Below, piece after piece: positions 147 through 64,000 of a DNA stretch of 64,000 bases. The DNA comes from Planctomycetota bacterium (lineage in GTDB: Bacteria; Planctomycetota; SZUA-567; H5-PLA8). Numbering within the stretch: position 1 is the first letter of the stretch; the number at the start of each line of letters is the position of its first letter. The DNA is taken from contig JBBRPR010000031.1 of NCBI GenBank assembly GCA_038227875.1, positions 1 to 64,000 on the forward strand, in the 5' to 3' direction. The position numbers and the translations under genes were made by a program. The notes beneath the pieces are model-generated. The model saw only the letters and a program-made list of their open reading frames with translations. It did not search any database and had not been told where the DNA came from.

Positions 147-3100
147 ATGTCGATGGCTTTGCGGCTTAAGACTGCCGCCAAAAGCCACGCAATTTTGGAA
201 CGCGCTTTTTTGGTGGCGGGAGAGTTAGTTGAGTCGGCAATTCACCGGGGCAACCAACGGATTGATACGGGCTTTCATCGTGTAACGGCTTCGATCGCTT
301 TTCATCTCGGCGGATACGCGGCACGCGCCTATTCGATACTTCCCACTCATCCGGCAATCGATAACCTTGCGCCAATCGAAAAAGTTTTAGTAGACCTGCT
401 GCGCCGAAATCTTGATGAGATGCGGCAATCCTACCTTTCTTGGATTAGGAATGACCAAAACTCAGATACCAATATAGCGCGGAAACTTCAAGACGATAGC
501 GAGTTCAACGAAGATGATGCAATTCACTCAATTCTGACAACCTCGTTTATGCGAGGCATTGCGCTATTCGATCATGCTATTACCACTGGCGATGCCGACT
601 CGGCATCGAAAGCCAAATCGCAGCTTGCAAACACCGCACTTGCCGCCGCAGATATGCGGGCAGTTAGCCATTGGTGGACATCGACCCTAGCATCACACCT
701 AATCGATGAACTGTGGCAATTTAGCTTGTACGTCCAAATCCCGACCTTGCCACCTGGAGCCGATGGTTCCAATACTTGGCAAAGTCTTCGGCGAGACTAT
801 ATACAACGCTTGCGTGCAGCCAAGAGATGCGCAGTCGAGCTGTGGCCCTCGCAATGCGAAGCTGCAAAGCGTGCAGTCAAGGAGTTTGATGATTTACTAG
901 TAGCACTCCCGACGAGTGCTGGAAAGACGCGAATCGCTGAGTTATGCATTCTGCGAGCATTGGCGGCAGGGAAGCGCGCGGTATACATAACACCGTTACG
1001 GGCGCTTTCTGCACAGGTGGAGCGAGATCTTTCTCAGACATTCAGGCCGCTCGGGTTTTCGGTCACGGCTCTGTATGGTGCGGCGGGGATTGAGACGGTC
1101 GATGCAAAATCGTTGAAGGAGGGAAAAATTGTTGTTTCAACTCCTGAAAAGCTTGATTTCGCTCTACGAAATGATCCTACGATCATTAATGACGTCGGAC
1201 TCGTCGTACTAGATGAAGGGCATATGTTGGGGCCAAACGAGCGTGAGGTGCGTTACGAAGCGCTTGTACAGCGATTGTTGTTGCGAACTGACTCCTCAAT
1301 CCGAAGAATTGTTTGTTTATCTGCACTCTTTCCAACACCGGAAGAAATGAAGGATCTTGTTGCGTGGATTCGGCAAGATGAGCCCGGGGAACCAATTTAT
1401 TCACGATGGCGCCCGACACGCCAGCGATTCGGAGTACTCAGATGGGCGCGAAATGCGGCTCGGTTAGAAGTTAAAGTGGAGGAAGAAAGTCCCTTTGTAC
1501 CCAGATTTGTTGAGTCGTGCGTGCCACCGGCCGGGTCTAGAAGACGCAAGAACTTTCCGGCTGAAAAGAATGAACTGACCTTGGCAGCCGCATGGAAGTT
1601 TGTCGAGCAGCAAAAGGAAGTTTTGATTTACTGTTCGTTGCGCAAATCAGTTGAAACACTCGGAAGGTTGGCAATCAAATGCATCAAGCAGGGCCTATTG
1701 CCGCCCCTGCGACAAACATCTCAACAAATCAGAGACGCCGTTGCAGTGGGCACAGAGTGGCTTGGAGGTGATCATCCGGCGGTTCAGTGTCTGCCATACG
1801 GCATAGCGCTTCACCACGGGGGGCTGCCTAGAGCATATCTTAACGAGATCGAAAAGCTTCTTCGTACCCGGGACTGCCCGCTAGTAATCGCATCACCTAC
1901 TCTTGCGCAAGGACTTAATCTTGCGGCAAGCGTACTTATTGTTCCATCAATATGGCGTAATCAGGAAGTCATTCCAGCTTCAGAGTTCGCGAACGTTGCT
2001 GGGCGCGCCGGCCGAGCGTTCGTTGATTTAGAGGGTCTAGTTCTCCACATTGTTCATGAACCCACCCCTGGAAAGACTAACTGGGCAATAAAGACTTGGG
2101 AACAGTTAGTAAGCCGAGCTCGGGGACCTCGGGTCAGCAGCGGAATATTGTTGCTTGCAAACAATATATTTGAGCAAATTGCATCCGTGAGTAACGCGCC
2201 ATTTGATGAAGTCGTTAATTACATTACTGGGCACGGCGACGCGTGGAGCTACAACCCTATCCTTTCTGAGAAGGACATTTCGGAAGAAGACTGGGAGCGA
2301 GATATCGCTTCGCTTGATTCGGCTATTTTGGCTTTACTTGATCCATCTACTGTTGACTCGGAGCTTGACCAATCGCTGGCCAATGTACTTCGCGGTTCAC
2401 TATTTTCGAGACAGCTGCAGGAGAAGACGGCAGCAATACAAAACCTGATTCGCGCATTCCTAGCCGCACGCGCAAAGAAGATATGGTCGGAAACTAATCT
2501 CAGTCAGAGAAAAGGTTATTACGCTGCGGGAGTCGGACTGCGCGCCGGAAAGTTTTTGGATTCAAACTTTTCATCACTTCTTAGCATGTTGTTGCGCATT
2601 GAGGCCGGAATTGTTGCAAAAAACGTCGATGATACCTGCAATGCGGTTGTTGAGTTCGCGGAGCTAGTATTACAAATCTCGCCATTTCACCCGCCTGCCG
2701 GGCTGCCTGCTCATTGGCAGGGCGCTTTGCGGGCTTGGATTAAGGGAGAGCCCGCTGCCGACGTTATCAAAACATGTGGCGACGACGGGGTAGATTTTCT
2801 TCAAGATGCAATAGCGTATAGGTTGCCTTGGGCAATGGAAGCACTTCGCGTACATGCCTTAGCACTCGGCGATCTGAAGGCTGTAGGGATTCAAGGGTTA
2901 GCGGCGTTAGCGGTTGAATGCGGTAGCATTGATCGAAGCGTAATGACACTCTTGCGCAACGGCCTAAGTTCGCGCGAAGCTGCAATTAACGCTGTTTCGT
3001 CAACATCCGCGGCTTTTTTCGACACTATTGAGATGCTTGTTTGGTTAATGTCCGACGACGTTCGAAACAAGGCTGCGAACGATGACTGGCCTACGAAACA

Positions 3101-43705: not shown

Positions 43706-44230
43706 GACGCCGTCATACTACCGTCTATGTTTCTTACTACCACTCAAGGGTGATGCCTATTTCGAAAAAATCCGCGCACAAGCGCAAACTTATTGAAAAT
43801 CAGCGAATGCAGCATTGGGAACGCTGTTGTCGAAAGTGGGCTATTAGCATTATTTCATGCCAGAAAACCCATGTCGATCGGCCCCGCAGCCGCCTGCCGG
43901 TGCTGATAGCTCTGTTCAGACGTACCATGCGGATCGATCGTTAGCCAAATTGCAGTGCGGAGCGCGTGAAGGCGCAGGACCCATCCGTGCTACAAAGCCG
44001 GCGACGAATTGGTGCGTTCGGCTCCATTCGGCGTGGAAGGCCGAGCCAACGCCCGTCTGCAAACCTCATCTCACTCGCGAGATCCAACTCCTTTAAACAA
44101 TGGAACATAGAAGAAATACCGTGATTTAACTTTATTTTATCGGTTTTTTGTTGAATTTAGTACCGGCCGCAGCGTATATTACTAGTAATTAGGTTCTTCA
44201 GATGAAGACCATCCTATACGGAGGTGCTTT

Positions 44231-45286
44231 ATGCACTCGCCGCACACTGCCGCGGCCTTGCCCGCGGCCAACAACGGGAGTCCCACCCAATCGGCTCCCT
44301 GCCCGTCCATCGAAACGATGGAGCCCCACGACCTCACGGCGATCTTCCCGTTGATGAGCGAGGCGGATTATGCAGCGCTGGTCGCCGACATCCGCGACAA
44401 GGGGCAGCTCGAGCCGGTCTGGACGTACGCCGGCAAGGTCATCGACGGCCGCCACCGCTTGCGCGCCTGCAAAGAATTGGGCGTGACGCCCAAGACGCGC
44501 GAATGGGACGGCAACGGCTCGCTCCTCGAGTTCGTGATCTCGCTGAACTTGCGGCGCCGCCAGCTCAAGGAAAATCAGCGCGCGATGGTCGCCGCGCGGC
44601 TGATGCCGATGTTTACAGAGGAAGCGCTACAGCGGATGAATGTCAAAGGAGTGGTCAAAAGCCAACCCCAGGCAAATTTGCCTGAGGGTCAGGCACGCGA
44701 TCAGGCGGGCAAATGCCTGAATGTCTCAGGCAGAAGTGTCACTCATGCTCGCAGACTCCTTGATCGTGGCATCCCCGCTCTAATCGCCAAAGTCGACACC
44801 GGCCAGCTCGCGGTGTCGGCGGCGGCGAAGATCGCGGCGCTTCCGGCGGAGGAGCAGAAGCGCATGCTGATGCTCAACCGCCGCGAAATCGCCGACGCGT
44901 TCCGGCTCGCCAGGCCGGCCCAGCCACCGGAACCGGCGCAGACCAGCACGCCCGCCCCGGCCCAACTGGAAAAGGCGGAGCCGCCGGCACAACCCGCGGC
45001 GGATCCATCACCTCCGCCGCAGGAAGCGGAGCGACCGACGTACCGCTATCCGCGCGCGGTGCGCAAACGCGAGACGGAAGCCGATGAGCGTCGTGACGAC
45101 GCGTTCATCAAGGCGATCTACAACGGCATCTGGTGCGATCTTCGCAAATGCGACGAAGGTCTGCGTTTGAAGGTGTCGGTGGGCAACTGGTACAACGAGC
45201 TGGCCGAGTTGTTTCGCCACCCGCTCTTCCCCGACCTGCTCGACCGCGGCGTGCTGGTGATGCGCAGCGACGAGCAACAACTGTAG
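44231..45286 (+). CDS. ParB/Srx N-terminal domain protein with HTH (phage/ICE-type ParB-like)
   Basis: GGAGG RBS; FPLMS...LVADIRDKGQLEPV...VIDGRHRLRAC (GxxRxxA); NLRRRQL; HTH ARDQAGKCLNVSGRSVTHARRL. Confidence 0.85.
   Translation: MHSPHTAAALPAANNGSPTQSAPCPSIETMEPHDLTAIFPLMSEADYAALVADIRDKGQLEPVWTYAGKVIDGRHRLRACKELGVTPKTREWDGNGSLLEFVISLNLRRRQLKENQRAMVAARLMPMFTEEALQRMNVKGVVKSQPQANLPEGQARDQAGKCLNVSGRSVTHARRLLDRGIPALIAKVDTGQLAVSAAAKIAALPAEEQKRMLMLNRREIADAFRLARPAQPPEPAQTSTPAPAQLEKAEPPAQPAADPSPPPQEAERPTYRYPRAVRKRETEADERRDDAFIKAIYNGIWCDLRKCDEGLRLKVSVGNWYNELAELFRHPLFPDLLDRGVLVMRSDEQQL
44668..44732. repeat. intragenic array of six (T)CAGGC(A) half-sites, including a perfect 16-bp palindrome
   Basis: CCAGGCA 44668, TGCCTGA 44679, TCAGGCA 44689, TCAGGCG 44701, TGCCTGA 44714, TCAGGCA 44726; palindrome CAGGCAAATTTGCCTG at 44669-44684. 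Confidence 0.85.
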
Positions 45287-45461
45287 TCGTTGTTGAACGA
45301 TGAATGAGGAGCGATGGATGATGAACGCCGAAAGCTGATCGTGGATCGCAGGCTTGAGGCTTTATCATTCATCGCTCTGAGCTCTGAGCAATCTACCCTC
45401 TTGAAAAGGGGGGGAGGTCCAAGGCCGCCGGACGCGCGCGAAAATCGAAGGCAGACCCGTT

Positions 45462-45914
45462 ATGCTTCGAAACATGCTGAGTGACGAGATCCACACAAAA
45501 ATTACAACGCTCTGCGCCTCGGCCGATGCGTACGTGGAAGGGAAGAAATTTGAACTCGCCATGCGGCTTTATCAGGAAGCGTGGGATTTGTTGCCGGAAC
45601 CCAGGCACGACTGGGATGCGGCGACGTGGATACTTTCGGCGCTTGGCGATTGTTGTTATCTGAGTGGGGATTACGCGCGATCAGTGGCCTTGTTCACGGA
45701 ATGTTTGCGCTGCCCCAATGCGCTGGCCAATCCATTTATTCATCTCCGCCTGGGTGAATCGCACTTCGAATTGGGAAATGAAACGTCAGCCGCAGATGAA
45801 TTGACGCGCGCGTACATGGGCGCAGGGAAGGAAATCTTCGCGGACGAGGCACCCAAATATTTTGAACTGCTCAAACGAGTACTGAAACTTCCTCCGGGGC
45901 AGACTGAGCTTTGA
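45462..45914 (+). CDS. small tetratricopeptide-repeat protein
   Basis: YQEAWDLLPEP...WILSALGD...NPFIHLRLGESHFELG...ELTRAYM. Confidence 0.8.
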   Translation: MLRNMLSDEIHTKITTLCASADAYVEGKKFELAMRLYQEAWDLLPEPRHDWDAATWILSALGDCCYLSGDYARSVALFTECLRCPNALANPFIHLRLGESHFELGNETSAADELTRAYMGAGKEIFADEAPKYFELLKRVLKLPPGQTEL

Positions 45915-62600: not shown

Positions 62601-64000
62601 GATCGGGAATACAAATGTCCGCGGTCTTGGACGTGGCCGATCCGCCGTTGGTATTGCCGGCGATGATGGAATTGAAAACATAGGTGTTATTTTGCAAGGC
62701 TATCAAGCCGCCGGTTGACGTACTGTCATTCAAATTTGAATTATTCGTGATCGTGCAGTTAACGATGGTGGTCGTGCCGCTGAAGGTACACACACCGCCG
62801 GCGGAATCGCTGGCGGAGTCGTTCGAATTGCCACTAATGGTGCAATTCTCCAACAGCATCGTGCCGCCTTGATAATTGATGCCGCCACCAGCATTGCTAA
62901 ACCCCGTATTCACGGCCTGATTATTGGAGACGGTGCAGCGTCGGATCGTCAAGAAATTGGAGACGACGGAGACGCCACCGCCGAATTTCCCGACATTGCC
63001 GGTGATGTTGCAATCCAGGATGGTCACGCTGTTGACGGTCGCAGCAGCTCGTGTCGTGACGCCACCGGCAAAGTTGAGGGAATAGTTGTCATGGCCACCG
63101 GTCAGGGTCATTCCGATCAATGTAATGTCGCCGTTCAATAGTTCGAAGACGGGATAGTTGGTGTTGTTGCCCGCCACCGTCAAGAGATTGGCGCCTGGGC
63201 CGTTGATCGTCAGCGATTTGTTGGGCTGCAGCGAACTGGCCAGATTGATCGTCCGGGATGTGTTGAAGAACGTGGGATCGAAGGTGATGACACCGTTGGC
63301 CGTGACATCGCTCAACGCCTTGCGCAGGGAGCCGGCTCCCGAATCGTTGGCGTTGGTGACGATGATGGTCGAGGAGAATCCGGCGTTGACCGTGACGCTC
63401 GTGAGCAGCGGCGGCGTGAAGGTCAGGCCACCATTGTTCCCGGCAACGTCCTGAATCGTGGCGCCGTTCAGCACCAGCGGCGATGCGCAGTCGATGCCAT
63501 CGGTGTCCACTTCTCCGATGACGACGGTGTGCCGGAAGGTGAGCAGCGCGGTGCCGTTGCCGGATATATAGGTCGCGGTGACCGGCGACGCGCCGATGGT
63601 CAGCGACATCGTCGGCGTTCCGTTGGCGACATACACAACGTGGTCGTATTGGACGATGAAATCGAGATTCTGATTCAGCAGGTATTCGCCGTCCGCGGGA
63701 CCCGTAACGCTTAAGATTGCAGGCGAGACGGTATTGACCAGGACGCTCGTGGTGACTGGAGGCGTAAACGTCAGCGCGGAATTGTTGCCGGCCAGGTCAC
63801 GGATCAAGGCTCCGTTCAACTGAATGGGCGAGGTACTGACGATGCCATCGCTGTCGCTCTCACCCGCCTGAACGGTGTAGCGGAACAGGAGCGCCGCCGA
63901 ACCACCGCCGGAGATGTAATTGGCCGAACGCGCTGTCGCGCCGATGGTCAACGCGATCGTCGGCGTTCCTCCGGTGACGAAAACAGGTTCGTTGAAGTTG
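59614..64000 (-). CDS. giant repetitive surface/adhesin-like protein (Ig-like repeats, beta-helix with choice-of-anchor-Q-like region, DUF11-like, PKD); 5' part outside the window
   Basis: The frame is open to the window edge. GTPT.SLTIG...YISG repeats; VTNANDSGAGSLR; YGGPTPTH...DQRG..R...DIGAIE; three repeats of about 128 aa; YSWDFGDG (PKD); DSDGDGVSDG. Confidence 0.88.
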   Translation of the reverse strand, partial: NFNEPVFVTGGTPTIALTIGATARSANYISGGGSAALLFRYTVQAGESDSDGIVSTSPIQLNGALIRDLAGNNSALTFTPPVTTSVLVNTVSPAILSVTGPADGEYLLNQNLDFIVQYDHVVYVANGTPTMSLTIGASPVTATYISGNGTALLTFRHTVVIGEVDTDGIDCASPLVLNGATIQDVAGNNGGLTFTPPLLTSVTVNAGFSSTIIVTNANDSGAGSLRKALSDVTANGVITFDPTFFNTSRTINLASSLQPNKSLTINGPGANLLTVAGNNTNYPVFELLNGDITLIGMTLTGGHDNYSLNFAGGVTTRAAATVNSVTILDCNITGNVGKFGGGVSVVSNFLTIRRCTVSNNQAVNTGFSNAGGGINYQGGTMLLENCTISGNSNDSASDSAGGVCTFSGTTTIVNCTITNNSNLNDSTSTGGLIALQNNTYVFNSIIAGNTNGGSATSKTADICIPDPIFGGTGKIYSDGYNLIGNIGVYTLGGTVGPTYFVNGVSGDQVGTPGAILDPGLSPLGNYGGPTPTHLITPSSLAYNKGSNTSFTGTMGPALVAPLNDQRGLVRPRGAAADIGAIEAQVVVSPATIPAGQSGTLYPTVTFSATGGTPAYALVFSGSLPSGMTCDGTTLAGTPTAVGSFPFTITATDSTSLVGTANFVLTVGSTPGIDLVPALSHTGTFKQGQSGVHYSVSVANTGALASSGTITATMSIPAGLTPTAFTGTGWVQTSLAPPTATFSGTIAAAGTDTNLMLTANIASNAAATLIPTVTISGGGETNTTNDTASDSTTVLPDQAPQISGTLPNQALNDTATLAPFTPVTIFYFDSAQSLTTSVTVSATSHGDFTPGSVTAAGFTNAGGGSYTFNGTAAALTAAIRQLVFAPIPTRVSPGTTEATSFTISVNDGISPAVTDSTTSVNSLSINNAPTISGAVANQALNDTQTLATFTGVTVADVDPQTLTVSVSLDLAAKGKFTAQSLTASGFADSGNGVYTFSGTPAAATTAIRLLVFAPTPNRVAPGSTEITTLSVAANDGVAPAVLNSITTVVSTSLNDGPAILGMNGGLQINDTQTIPPFAIAILRDLDVPAQTLAVSVTLDDPAKGAFTPASLTASGFTDAGAGRYTFNGATTIATNAIRQLVFAAAPRHLPPGQSETTTMTVTLSDGIAPTVTDKVTTVTVTFIPPPVVVVTSPASATPPNPGLGQTVQFAVGVTGSGTLTYSWDFGDGSPTSAQASPTHAYQTEGAYTATVTVSDTFGNSATSTVTVTVSAPLVGTGPDSDGDGVSDGIETTLGTSPTDPLSTPYSGPVLPLTVLKAGIKLNFASVSADGLSASGTLHIPKGYSPLKNQVALVVGSVVRSWTLDAKGKGKTRDSSFKLMIKTKKKVVLEQDAKFSIMFKKVALALTLDGSGLKNADARKLPVNVTFNLILNKSLYRKAQDLVYTAKKGKTGMAKSLKVIIKK

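Follow-up and report, generated by a model that had tools for sequence, protein, structure and literature searches.

Gene context and transcription signals

The window (the whole stretch of DNA analysed, 64,000 nt) carries on its plus strand a ParB-like gene, P0001 (44231–45286), which encodes 351 amino acids with the motif VIDGRHRLRAC. Both the gene and the half-sites described below lie at the positions given in an earlier sequence-only reading. The AT-rich leader contains a candidate sigma-70-like promoter (TTGAAT, 18-nt spacer, TATATT; 44151–44180, plus strand), found by a consensus scan that returned one site against 0.6 expected. It is followed by a small palindrome read from the sequence, TCTTCAGATGAAGA (44195–44208, plus strand), and 3' of this by GGAGG at 44220–44224. 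Beyond the stop codon lies an inverted repeat, GAACGATGAATGA...TCATTCATCGCTC (45295–45377, plus strand). The promoter-bearing leader is common to P0001 and one of its paralogs in the same genome, C14, with recurrence of the leader palindrome 5' of the latter. A different leader of ~195 nt is common to four other paralogs, and the 3' sequences of paralogs C107 and C33 resemble the downstream inverted repeat of P0001.

The six flanking ORFs that were scanned comprised a Ser/Thr kinase, a TPR protein, a trypsin-like protease, a ClpB-like ATPase, a cyclase, and one ORF without a family. No parA, integrase or phage gene was present among them, as had been claimed. The designation of the gene as solitary therefore holds for its neighbours but not for its copy number, since the protein has 21 matches in the genome. 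Nor is the gene a lone oddity: it is a member of a broad family, often fused to methylases and found in prophage replication regions.

Predicted structure of the protein

The N-terminal ParB/Srx-fold domain (approximately residues 33–137; 44327–44641, plus strand) was modelled with AF2 pLDDT of 89–97. It contains box I-III-like motifs (LVADIRDKGQLEPV, DGRHRLRA, and NLRRRQL) that align with the Spo0J boxes, and residues D72, G73, R74, R76, N106, R109, and R110 are invariant across 36 sequences. In this superfamily, box II is an arginine motif of GxxRxxA type and box III is of ENLQR type; the motifs here deviate from the canonical GERR and ENLQR, and nucleotide binding is putative. The helix-turn-helix (HTH; residues 155–179; 44693–44767, plus strand) has model helices at residues 155–162 and 167–179 and aligns with the HTH of Spo0J; its recognition helix is RSVTHARRLL. 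The C-terminal alpha/beta domain (residues 283–346; 45077–45268, plus strand; AF2 pLDDT ~90) is putatively involved in dimerisation and is kept in the stand-alone subfamily. A homodimer model of residues 274–351 scored 0.45 vs. 0.01 for the best control, with at least 96% of contacts in agreement between runs and partner pLDDT of at least 64. This passes the mark of the tool. Among proteins with solved pair structures, 20 of 30 reached that mark, and among those with single-chain structures, 1 of 23; these counts apply only roughly here, since the alignment was one made for this analysis.

Foldseek searches with the model yielded matches of probability 1.00 (E 4e-6 to 4e-4, ~215 columns) to ParB, pNOB8 ParB, Noc, Spo0J, and KorB. 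The best match was ParB with CTPgammaS (7bnr, E 4e-6), accompanied by other ParB/Spo0J-type structures (6sdk, 1vz0, 6t1f, 4umk), Noc (7nfu, 7ol9), and KorB (8qa9, 1r71). Profile comparison with PHROG gave families 21315 (7e-26) and 4715, "ParB-like partition protein" (8e-17). No Pfam family matched at E ≤0.01, PF02195/ParBc being below threshold and only DUF7227 appearing at 0.2, and TIGR00180 reached 16.3 bits vs. a cut-off of 58.45; PF02195 does match some relatives of the protein. According to the model, P0001 is built like ParB, with a putatively NTP-binding ParB/Srx fold at its N-terminus, an HTH in the middle, and a presumed dimerisation domain at its C-terminus.

Palindrome and half-sites within the gene

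The core of the site is a perfect 16-mer palindrome, CAGGCAAATTTGCCTG (44669–44684), proposed to be the cognate site of the protein. It codes for Q146–E151 (Q-A-N-L-P-E), in a low-confidence loop between the N-terminal domain and the HTH (pLDDT <50 at residues 143–148). The sequence-only reading had proposed that further copies be sought, and the 9.34-Mb genome indeed contains 15 exact copies vs. 0 for a reversed control.

Extra half-sites spanning 44679–44732 overlap the HTH codons and form TGCCTGA-GGG-TCAGGCA (44679–44695), TCAGGC-N8-GCCTGA (44701–44720), and TGCCTGA-ATGTC-TCAGGCA (44714–44732). The dense array of six half-sites is present as described, but its significance is marginal: with the 16-mer fixed, four extra half-sites were counted where codon shuffling predicts 0.85 (P = 0.025). 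Five other paralogs have 0–1 matches each, all non-significant, which rules out the extra half-sites, and with them the array, as a family feature. When the whole of P0001 was shuffled, a palindrome with an arm of at least 8 nt arose anywhere in 5.5% of 20,000 shuffles and a cluster of at least five copies of any 6-mer in 14% of 20,000, both non-significant, because GC-rich low-complexity codons yield palindromes by chance. The case thus rests on the comparative data.

A hypervariable specificity cassette

The linker, the palindrome, and the HTH fall within a segment of low GC3 (44609–44800, plus strand), delimited by GC3 and by identity among paralogs. GC3 is 0.53 here vs. 0.85 elsewhere in P0001, and the same dip occurs in all six full-length paralogs, so the excess of A/T-ending codons noticed by eye in the sequence-only reading is real. 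Identity among paralogs is 0.32–0.59 within the segment vs. 0.73–0.93 in its flanks. In the contigs of paralogs, homology ends at 44608 and resumes near 44801, with equal length between. Judged by composition and paralog identity, the site and the HTH share one hypervariable cassette between conserved flanks.

The linker palindrome as a family trait

The homolog set comprised 214 distinct loci among the matches listed (78 metagenome, 72 genome, and 64 viral), the metagenome and viral loci being drawn from the best 80 of at least 540 and the best 80 of at least 511 candidates, respectively. A perfect palindrome with arms of at least 6 nt was found at the equivalent linker position in 139 of these 214 loci (metagenome 43/78, genome 57/72, viral 39/64) and was absent from the other 75. 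In control windows of equal length, such palindromes were present in 4/213 cases upstream (1/77, 2/72, and 1/64, in the same order) and 9/212 downstream (3/76, 4/72, and 2/64). The centre was AATT in 134 of 156 linker palindromes with arms of at least 5 nt, and the arms differed among loci, with lengths from 5 to 21 nt.

The palindromes use two codon phases (24 and 23 loci); examples of their framing are GCA AAT TTG CC, CCA ATT GG, and CAA ATT TGC. Synonymous resampling of 148 linkers gave 11.3 loci with arms of at least 6 nt vs. 98 observed and 1.7 loci with arms of at least 8 nt vs. 65 observed. Across the family, synonymous shuffling therefore does not reproduce the palindromes, and the refuting conditions that the sequence-only reading had set on homologs and on shuffling do not hold. 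This excess, together with the two reading frames, places the signal at the level of DNA and not of protein. Arms of up to 21 nt exceed what an HTH dimer needs, which suggests hairpin or cruciform formation, or "perfecting" by template switching, as well.

In 730 kb of flanks around 160 loci, only two further AATT palindromes with arms of at least 7 nt were found outside the linker; there is one site per gene in the family. In a Neorhizobium genome, the 18-mer of the homolog is unique, with a one-mismatch, chance-like copy in an ABC-ATPase gene. In a Lysobacter genome, the homolog's 20-mer recurs exactly at a distance of 114 kb, and no ParB-like gene adjoins this second copy.

Relatives and fusions with DNA methylases

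Palindrome-bearing relatives span bacterial phyla and phages (metagenomes, genomes, and viral contigs). The isolated-phage collection returned eight records, all with <60% identity and ≤50% query coverage. Among 72 relatives in genomes, 40 are fused to DNA methylases (34 MT-A70 and 6 N6_N4_Mtase). In named genomes, relatives are located in prophage replication/recombination modules with D5_N and Prim-Pol primases, helicases, AAA_24, and the DNA polymerase III beta subunit, and one relative has the module of HTH and palindrome within a primase-like protein, beside a DnaB-like gene.

Fusions of the ParB-CTPase fold with methylases are described as enriched in prophages in PMC12704722; its passages on these fusions mention no intragenic site, and the stem "palindrom" occurs 0 times in its main text. 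We found no published description of an intragenic palindrome in this family in the openly accessible main texts covered.

Co-variation of site and recognition helix

Palindrome bases co-vary with residues of the recognition helix. Over 107 loci, Arg occupied helix index 8 in 35/35 cases where the base adjoining AATT (p3) was C and in 0/72 where it was A. The same rule held for the held-out viral loci among the matches listed (7/7 for C and 31/31 for A; 38/38 in all), so that in the pooled set C went with Arg in 42/42 and A in 0/103, and all 145 of 145 loci agreed. In P0001 itself, p3 is A and helix index 8 is His173. On a tree of the N-terminal domain, there were seven independent supported pairs, 7/7 in one direction (sign test 0.016). 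Mutual information was 0.91 bits for p3 vs. index 8, 1.22 bits for p6 vs. index 7 (C with Q/E, G with R, T with A), and 1.22 bits for p7 vs. index 3, and was low for the other variable helix positions.

Since only ~60 nt separate the palindrome from the HTH, co-inheritance of the cassette could mimic co-variation. A control tree on the DNA-binding domain yielded only one supported independent pair and is underpowered, although the best tree implies 17 joint changes. Within this genome, C11 and C27 have a near-identical HTH and different palindrome centres, and C27 and C32 have a common palindrome core and different HTHs; the coupling of site and HTH is loose in places here. The idea of the sequence-only reading that the site and the specificity domain form one module is nevertheless supported by the shared cassette and by the p3/index 8 agreement.

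Paralogs and dispersed palindromes in the genome

Merging the 21 matches to P0001 with those of six other paralog queries gave 24 intervals. The genome contains at least 13 paralogs. Each stands alone as a gene and carries a palindrome unlike those of the others, and no neighbours were common to the paralog loci compared. All 13 of 13 paralog segments examined had a hairpin-forming palindrome of 10–26 nt at the equivalent codon position, AATT-centred in nine. Paralogs C11 and C33 have a near-identical N-terminal part as far as the motif that precedes the palindrome, from which point they differ.

Perfect AATT-centred palindromes of at least 14 nt number 349 in the genome, 235 of them outside long ORFs by a rough classing. 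In sequence they correspond to the internal sites of the ParB-like gene family, and the palindromes of several paralogs have 7–19 dispersed copies each. The dispersed palindromes fall into several sequence families per genome, often stand in clusters of 2–4, and lie nearer to 3' than to 5' gene ends (median 63 nt from facing 3' ends). Intergenic copies share up to ~40 nt with the linker of P0001, in the arrangement TGGTCAAAAGCCAAC-AT-palindrome-ATCC, and likewise in one Terriglobia genome. In two Terriglobia genomes, copy number and palindromes likewise go together: the matches number 7 and 14, and one site core occurs 38 and 43 times.

We considered the dispersed palindromes as intrinsic terminators and rejected this, as a T-rich tail on either side accompanied 70/349 of them vs. 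14% of random intergenic places; a tail directed toward a nearby 3' gene end was found for 41/247. The stand-alone form has multiplied to at least 13 single-gene copies with different sites here, and copies of these sites have reached intergenic DNA as well. That paralogs and palindromes expanded together in two unrelated lineages suggests a route, so far undescribed, by which short palindromes spread in genomes.

Proposed function and alternative explanations

These comparisons argue that CAGGCAAATTTGCCTG is probably a double-stranded DNA site read by the HTH of the protein encoded there, so that gene and site would form a self-addressed module. A dimer of P0001 would place one recognition helix on each half-site of the palindrome. 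The site precedes the HTH codons by ~45–80 nt and falls in a loop tolerating almost any residues, an arrangement that would allow site and reader to be inherited and swapped as one cassette. The protein may bind in cis to its own coding DNA and, by analogy with ParB, Noc, and KorB, may clamp in an NTP-gated manner and slide from the site. Possible consequences would be self-repression by a roadblock or the marking or silencing of adjoining DNA; in methylase-fused relatives, methylation could be aimed at the element's own DNA.

Four other explanations were weighed against this one. The palindrome could be a hotspot of recombination or template switching, or a cassette boundary, at which N-terminal domains and HTH cassettes are shuffled, perhaps with seeding of linker copies, its symmetry being a by-product of hairpin-templated repair. 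Mosaic paralogs such as C11/C33, the homology break at 44608, the stretch of linker carried by intergenic copies here and in one Terriglobia genome, and the fit of perfect symmetry and very long arms to template switching all speak for it. We regard it as unlikely on its own, because it leaves the constant AATT centre across phyla and the base-to-residue code unexplained and because the homology break is 60 nt upstream of the palindrome; it can coexist with the self-addressed site.

A hairpin in the mRNA, acting in pausing, stability, processing or translation and not as a protein-binding DNA site, would have its classic signature in variable arms of up to 21 nt with kept pairing around a constant AAUU "loop", and the minus-strand hairpin with TTGGCTTTTG scores terminator-like. 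The palindromes are, however, perfectly symmetrical even across their middle, a feature that a loop would not need, and their arms co-vary with the encoded recognition-helix residues, which RNA would not need either. Rfam over 43800–45600 gave no family (best E 0.24, far below gathering scores), and T-rich tails at only 70/349 genomic copies, set against the 14% background, speak in the same direction. We consider such a hairpin improbable.

The palindrome might instead be a replication origin or pac site of a mobile element, lying inside the gene of its recognition protein. The lambda origin lies in gene O, and pac sites lie in small-terminase genes. The location of relatives in prophage replication/recombination modules, including the primase-like protein beside a DnaB-like gene, agrees with this explanation, as does PMC4738411, where ParB-terminase loci are predicted to modify the DNA of phages while it is being packaged. 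It seems to us just as improbable as the hairpin: P0001 and its paralogs have no adjoining replication or phage genes, and neither iterons nor, apart from the 4–6 nt centre, an AT-rich unwinding stretch is present. The pac/terminase version was rejected, as no terminase occurs among the 135 nearest neighbour ORFs.

Least probable is a REP-like palindrome that was mobilised by some agent, such as an IS200-like Y1 (RAYT) transposase, landed in frame by chance, and is functionally unlinked to the gene: the abundance and 3'-end placement of the 349 palindromes, eight Y1_Tnp matches in the genome, and REPs reported in frame within genes (in a part of PMC3733652) are in its favour, but homologs from other phyla and viral contigs without expansion keep the palindrome at the equivalent codon position (one relative has GGCAAATTTGCC only once in 7.2 Mb, inside the homolog), 0/7 Y1_Tnp loci have an AATT palindrome within 3.6 kb or flanking repeats within 400 nt, and GTAG and CGTC each occur at 1 of 698 palindrome flanks, so that the absent tags and Y1-flanking repeats contradict such an origin of P0001's own site.

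Returning to the self-addressed site, we put forward a wider reading more tentatively, as one whose chances are somewhat below even. P0001 would belong to a family of ParB-fold/HTH proteins found throughout bacteria and in phages, stand-alone or methylase-fused, each with its own palindromic loading site in disordered-linker codons. Together they would make up hundreds of orthogonal pairs of protein and site, related by a base-to-residue code. The stand-alone form would, in some genomes, act as a proliferating one-gene element that spreads sites through intergenic DNA. If true, such a system could be seen as the counterpart of REP elements coupled to a protein, or as a Noc-like way of marking chromosomes through many channels. 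The DNA target of each member of this large, poorly understood ParB-fold branch could then be read from its own gene, the targets of phage ParB-methylase fusions would become testable, and the choice of bases by ParB-type HTHs could be studied through a natural code, in which p3 pairs with Arg and p6 with Q/E, R or A. It would also become testable whether cis loading lets mobile elements tell self from host, and the many orthogonal pairs could be useful for DNA-locus labelling based on ParB/parS.

Comparison with known systems

Reported ParB-methylase fusions (PMC12704722 and PMC4738411, in the portions concerned) are similar to the relatives of P0001, 40/72 of which are fused, and are enriched in prophages; P0001 itself has no methylase. 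REP/RAYT systems likewise consist of hundreds of short, mostly intergenic palindromes in clusters of 2–4 and in several families, but this genome has no tag-flanked Y1 transposase gene, and its palindromes are perfect, with a fixed AATT centre.

ParB/Spo0J with parS has in common with P0001 the N-terminal fold and HTH, the box I-III-like motifs, a 16-bp palindrome, and the C-terminal dimer, here modelled. The spo0J gene of B. subtilis even contains a parS site. P0001 differs in having no adjoining parA and in sequence similarity below the family cut-offs, and its family differs in that the site lies in the gene's own linker codons family-wide, is hypervariable among members, and is in many cases accompanied by a fused methylase.

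Noc and KorB, paralogs with the ParB fold, recognise palindromes dotted around a replicon and do so outside partition; the dispersed palindromes of this genome (7–19 copies for several paralogs) resemble their sites. Here, however, the paralogs are numerous, every one having a separate set of sites and a site inside its own gene, and the dispersed copies favour 3' gene ends over 5' ones, unlike operators. Lambda O with ori-lambda has an unrelated fold and combines iterons with an AT-rich region in a replication origin, whereas P0001 has a single palindrome; in both, a cis site, in P0001 a proposed one, lies in the interdomain-linker codons of its own binder, and the two travel together in mosaic genomes.

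ParB-like gene of the window and its palindrome

The sequence-only reading described a solitary ParB-like gene with a dense array of palindromic half-sites inside its own HTH-coding region, and the core of this observation, a ParB-like gene with an internal palindrome, is real. The gene occupied 44231-45286 (+) and encoded a protein of 351 aa (P0001) with the motif VIDGRHRLRAC, which contains the DGRHR noted earlier. The six neighbouring ORFs scanned encoded a Ser/Thr kinase, a TPR protein, a trypsin-like protease, a ClpB-like ATPase, a cyclase and a product without an assigned family; as originally reported, no parA, integrase or phage gene was found among them.

P0001 had no Pfam match, and its TIGR00180 score was far under the cut-off of that model. 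PHROGs assigned it to family 21315 (7e-26), with a second match to a 'ParB-like partition protein' family (8e-17). Foldseek searches with the AlphaFold model (mean pLDDT 82; input alignment of 36 relatives) retrieved ParB with CTPgammaS, pNOB8 ParB, Noc, Spo0J and KorB, with E-values down to 4e-6 and alignments of ~215 columns corresponding to the N-domain and HTH. The family profile aligned LVADIRDKGQLEP, DGRHRLRA and NLRRRQL to the Spo0J boxes and the HTH to that of Spo0J. Residues 143-148 were modelled with pLDDT <50; the first part of the palindrome-coded stretch falls in this loop. Residues 283-346 formed a confident small domain, the homodimer model of which scored 0.45 vs. 0.01 for the best control (at least 96% contact agreement between runs, partner pLDDT at least 64). 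The mark for this score was passed by 20 of 30 proteins solved as pairs and by 1 of 23 solved as single chains, counts that are only rough here because a custom alignment was used. Taken together, the fold matches, the aligned boxes and HTH, and the dimer model give P0001 a predicted ParB-like plan of NTP-fold, HTH and dimeriser.

A perfect 16-mer palindrome, CAGGCAAATTTGCCTG, was located inside the gene at 44669-44684, framed as CAG GCA AAT TTG CCT G and encoding Q-A-N-L-P-E. All other half-site arrangements listed earlier were also present: TGCCTGA-GGG-TCAGGCA (44679-44695), TCAGGC-N8-GCCTGA (44701-44720) and TGCCTGA-ATGTC-TCAGGCA (44714-44732). Synonymous codon shuffling gave a divided result. 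Six CAGGCR/YGCCTG half-sites in the 100 nt were reached in 2 of 20,000 shuffles, a statistic picked post hoc with the data already seen. Two unbiased statistics were not significant: a palindrome with arms of at least 8 nt anywhere in the gene appeared in 5.5% of shuffles, and at least five clustered copies of any 6-mer in 14%. When shuffling left the 16-mer intact, the four additional half-site matches were marginal (P = 0.025), and five other paralogs had 0–1 extra matches each to their own palindromes, none significant. For these reasons, we treat the 'array' as one strong palindrome with marginal extras. The A/T-ending codons noticed by eye were confirmed, GC3 being 0.53 over 44609-44800 vs. 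0.85 in the remainder of the gene. The sole other AATT-centred perfect palindrome of at least 14 nt in the window, ATTCAAATTTGAAT (62728-62741), fell within a 6.8-kb open frame on the minus strand.

Distribution of the palindrome in the family

The genome of the window (G000; 9.34 Mb, 176 contigs) contained 21 matches to P0001, and queries with P0001 and six other paralogs gave 24 merged intervals. Each of the 13 paralog segments examined carried its own, different palindrome at the same codon position (for example, CATATGGTAAATTTACCATATG, ATGGGGAAAATTTTCCCCAT, GCCGCCAATTGGCGGC, GTGGTTGCAAATTTGCAACCAC and GGGCACCAATTGGTGCCC), with an AATT centre in nine.

Relatives were fetched from three collections by N-domain peptide patterns, so that sampling was independent of the palindrome. 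Each locus was scored by the longest perfect palindrome in the linker, defined as the segment from the QRAM motif to the HTH, and equal-length windows on either side served as controls. Among 78 distinct metagenome loci, arms of at least 6 nt were found in 43 linkers (upstream 1/77, downstream 3/76) and arms of at least 8 nt in 30 linkers and in neither control. The 72 distinct genome loci, belonging by record titles to Acidobacteriota, Alpha-, Beta- and Gammaproteobacteria, Planctomycetota and Actinomycetota, gave 57 linkers with arms of at least 6 nt (upstream 2/72, downstream 4/72) and 36 with at least 8 nt. For 64 new loci from viral contigs, left after removal of five with linkers identical to earlier loci, the counts were 39 (upstream 1/64, downstream 2/64) and 18, respectively. 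The palindrome anticipated at this position in homologs was thus found in all three collections. AATT was the centre of 134 of 156 palindromes with arms of at least 5 nt, and the longest arms reached 21 nt.

Two codon phases of the centre were used (24 and 23 loci), and the encoded peptides differed: A-N-L-P (GCA AAT TTG CC), L-P-I-G (CTG CCA ATT GGC AG), A-Q-I-C-A and S-I-D. In close relatives, the conserved Asn was followed by L, W, C, S or F, all with T-first codons. Arms of at least 6 nt were observed in 98 of 148 loci vs. 11.3 under synonymous resampling, and arms of at least 8 nt in 65 vs. 1.7; the resampling used the codon usage of each gene and kept fixed a protein that is itself shaped by the palindrome. 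The signal resides in the DNA, not in the protein.

One site per gene is the rule in the family. Beyond the linker, AATT palindromes with arms of at least 7 nt occurred just twice more in 730 kb of flanks from 160 loci, both being of an unrelated TAATTA type. The 18-mer of a Neorhizobium ParB-like gene occurred once in its genome. The sole GGCAAATTTGCC in the 7.2 Mb of one relative of G000 was inside a homologous HTH module of a primase-like protein. The 20-mer of the Lysobacter homolog, far too long for chance, had a further exact copy in its genome, 114 kb from the gene (L193, G042:C37:8450-12470, near 2001-2020), with no ParB-like gene and no DNA similarity around it. Locus L020 (G006:C1:1326243-1329392, ORF 886-1911 (-)) encoded a 341-aa primase-like protein with a CHC2-type zinc-finger signature, recognized by eye, and an inserted ANLPQG and HTH module; it carried GTGGCAAATTTGCCAC at the corresponding place and adjoined a DnaB/RepA-like gene. 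The HTH-plus-site module therefore exists outside ParB-fold proteins.

Co-variation of the site and the recognition helix

A clear arm/helix pattern emerged when 82 loci were ordered by their arms. The 107 distinct loci then compared, seven of them paralogs of G000, had either C (35 loci) or A (72 loci) as the base just outside AATT (p3). Two residues past the conserved R-S-V in the recognition helix, Arg was present in 35/35 of the C loci and 0/72 of the A loci. Recognition of G in a C:G pair by Arg is ordinary chemistry. Mutual information was 0.91 bits between p3 and helix index 8, 1.22 bits between p6 and index 7 (C with Q/E, G with R, T with A) and 1.22 bits between p7 and index 3; the remaining variable helix positions gave 0.1–0.4 bits.

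A tree of the N-domain only required at least 21 changes of each trait. Seven independent pairs on its supported branches all agreed (sign test 0.016), a count that linkage could inflate, the palindrome lying ~60 nt from the HTH in one travelling cassette. A control tree of the DNA-binding domain, in which the tested residues had been masked out, was underpowered: it implied 17 joint changes and resolved one supported pair. The viral loci, obtained only after the p3/Arg rule had been stated, followed it in 38/38 cases (C/Arg 7/7; A/not Arg 31/31), and the p6 code was seen again. Co-variation with HTH residues, proposed for a module in which site and specificity domain travel together, was accordingly found. 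That module idea is largely borne out by the p3/Arg co-variation, the family-wide linker palindrome and the variable low-GC3 cassette described below, and judged by these sequences the module is far wider than the window gene.

Paralogs and dispersed palindromes

Each paralog of G000 was solitary, flanked by unrelated host genes and preceded by its own conserved AT-rich leader. One ~195-nt leader was common to four paralogs; the window copy and the paralog on contig C14 had another in common, with a promoter-like TTGAAT-18-TATATT at 44151-44180. In 6/6 full-length paralogs, the cassette of linker, palindrome and HTH was the variable, low-GC3 part, and in paralog contigs from metagenomes homology was lost at 44608 and back near 44801. 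A conserved inverted repeat, GAACGATGAATGA ... TCATTCATCG, was located directly 3' of the stop codon (45295-45377) and also downstream of paralogs C107 and C33. This repeat and the shared leader suggest that duplication involved a unit of ~1.4–1.5 kb made up of the leader, the gene and the 3' stem. The paralog count is probably an underestimate, since the assembly breaks within the family (copies cut by contig ends at C36:85826, C110:15140, C4:2, C32:2, C43:14 and C88:8).

The palindromes of several paralogs were dispersed in G000: 15 copies of the window 16-mer, 10 of the C36 16-mer, 11 of the C15 22-mer and 8 of the C3 18-mer. AATT was the centre of 349 of 1,326 perfect palindromes of at least 14 nt, with 108 distinct cores; 14 of the 349 were in ParB-like intervals and, by a rough test, 235 outside long ORFs. 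Their median distance was 63 nt to facing 3' gene ends vs. 154 nt to 5' ends. Many intergenic copies had ~40 nt in common with the linker of the gene (TGGTCAAAAGCCAAC-AT-palindrome-ATCC), and copies were grouped as 2–4 different palindromes. Such clusters were joined by GGTCAAAATGACC or TGGTCAAAAGCCAAC (e.g., C60:29600-29720, C10:135050-135150, C25:100360-100450). TGGTCAAAAGCCAAC matches exactly the codons that specify V-V-K-S-Q immediately before the palindrome in ParB-like genes; other paralogs carried its near reverse-complement form, GTGGATTTTAACCAC (V-D-F-N-H). The dispersed copies were not REPs of the RAYT type, and most were not terminators.

GGCAAATTTGCC had 43 copies in G000, compared with 0–4 per genome among 40 relatives. 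Two Terriglobia genomes in which P0001 found 7 and 14 matches contained 38 and 43 copies, respectively (control 0), and three genomes with 1–2 matches contained 0–3. In G043, one of these two Terriglobia genomes, intergenic copies again had flanks in common with the linker of the gene. The expansion is lineage-specific and has arisen more than once. In G043, a ~130-nt repeat on at least nine contigs held a pair of GGCAAATTTGCC-type palindromes with a spacing of exactly 48 nt (L195-L198). Outside the window, G000 had a ~200-nt repeat family (C19:50090-50330, C70:16414-16650, C57:7455-7710, C85:31470-31700, C14:171140-171380 and others) consisting of a palindrome X (TCAGGCAAATTTGCCTGA or TCAGGCCAATTGGCCTGA), a conserved CCACTACTAATGGTAGAGTTGTACCTGTGGAACACCT and a palindrome Y with arms different in every copy and pairing kept; it looks like a structured element. 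A short repeat, GGGGTCAGGGGCCAGGGGTCAGGGGCCAG, was dispersed on many contigs (C19:49995-50040 and about 40 other places).

Methylase fusions and proposed mechanism

Methylase fusions made up 40 of the 72 ORFs of genome relatives (34 with MT-A70, 6 with N6_N4 DNA methylases), and no additional Pfam domain was found in the remaining 32. Neighbour families were mostly prophage replication, recombination or regulatory genes, including D5_N and Prim-Pol primases, SF1 and SF2 helicases, AAA_24, DNA polymerase III beta subunit, C5 methylase, and cI- and AlpA-like HTH proteins. Terminase was found in 0/135 nearest neighbours. Literature searches yielded no published description of the intragenic-palindrome arrangement. 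The main text of a 2025 survey of the ParB-CTPase fold, in which 'palindrom' occurs 0 times, reports methylase fusions enriched in prophages (PMC12704722). In an older review, a passage on ParB-terminase loci predicts modification of phage DNA at packaging (PMC4738411).

The very long arms and perfect symmetry of the palindromes suggest a role for hairpin-templated repair, too, in shaping the site. With the site within its own coding region, reader and site would never be parted by recombination, and action in cis on the encoding DNA would be favoured. Self-limited transcription and local marking or silencing of neighbouring DNA are plausible outcomes; in the methylase fusions, the methylase may be aimed at the own DNA of the element. 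The co-variation points to binding of a P0001 dimer to the palindrome of its own gene via two recognition helices. If P0001 behaves like ParB, Noc and KorB, nucleotide binding may then lead its N-domains to close on the DNA and slide.
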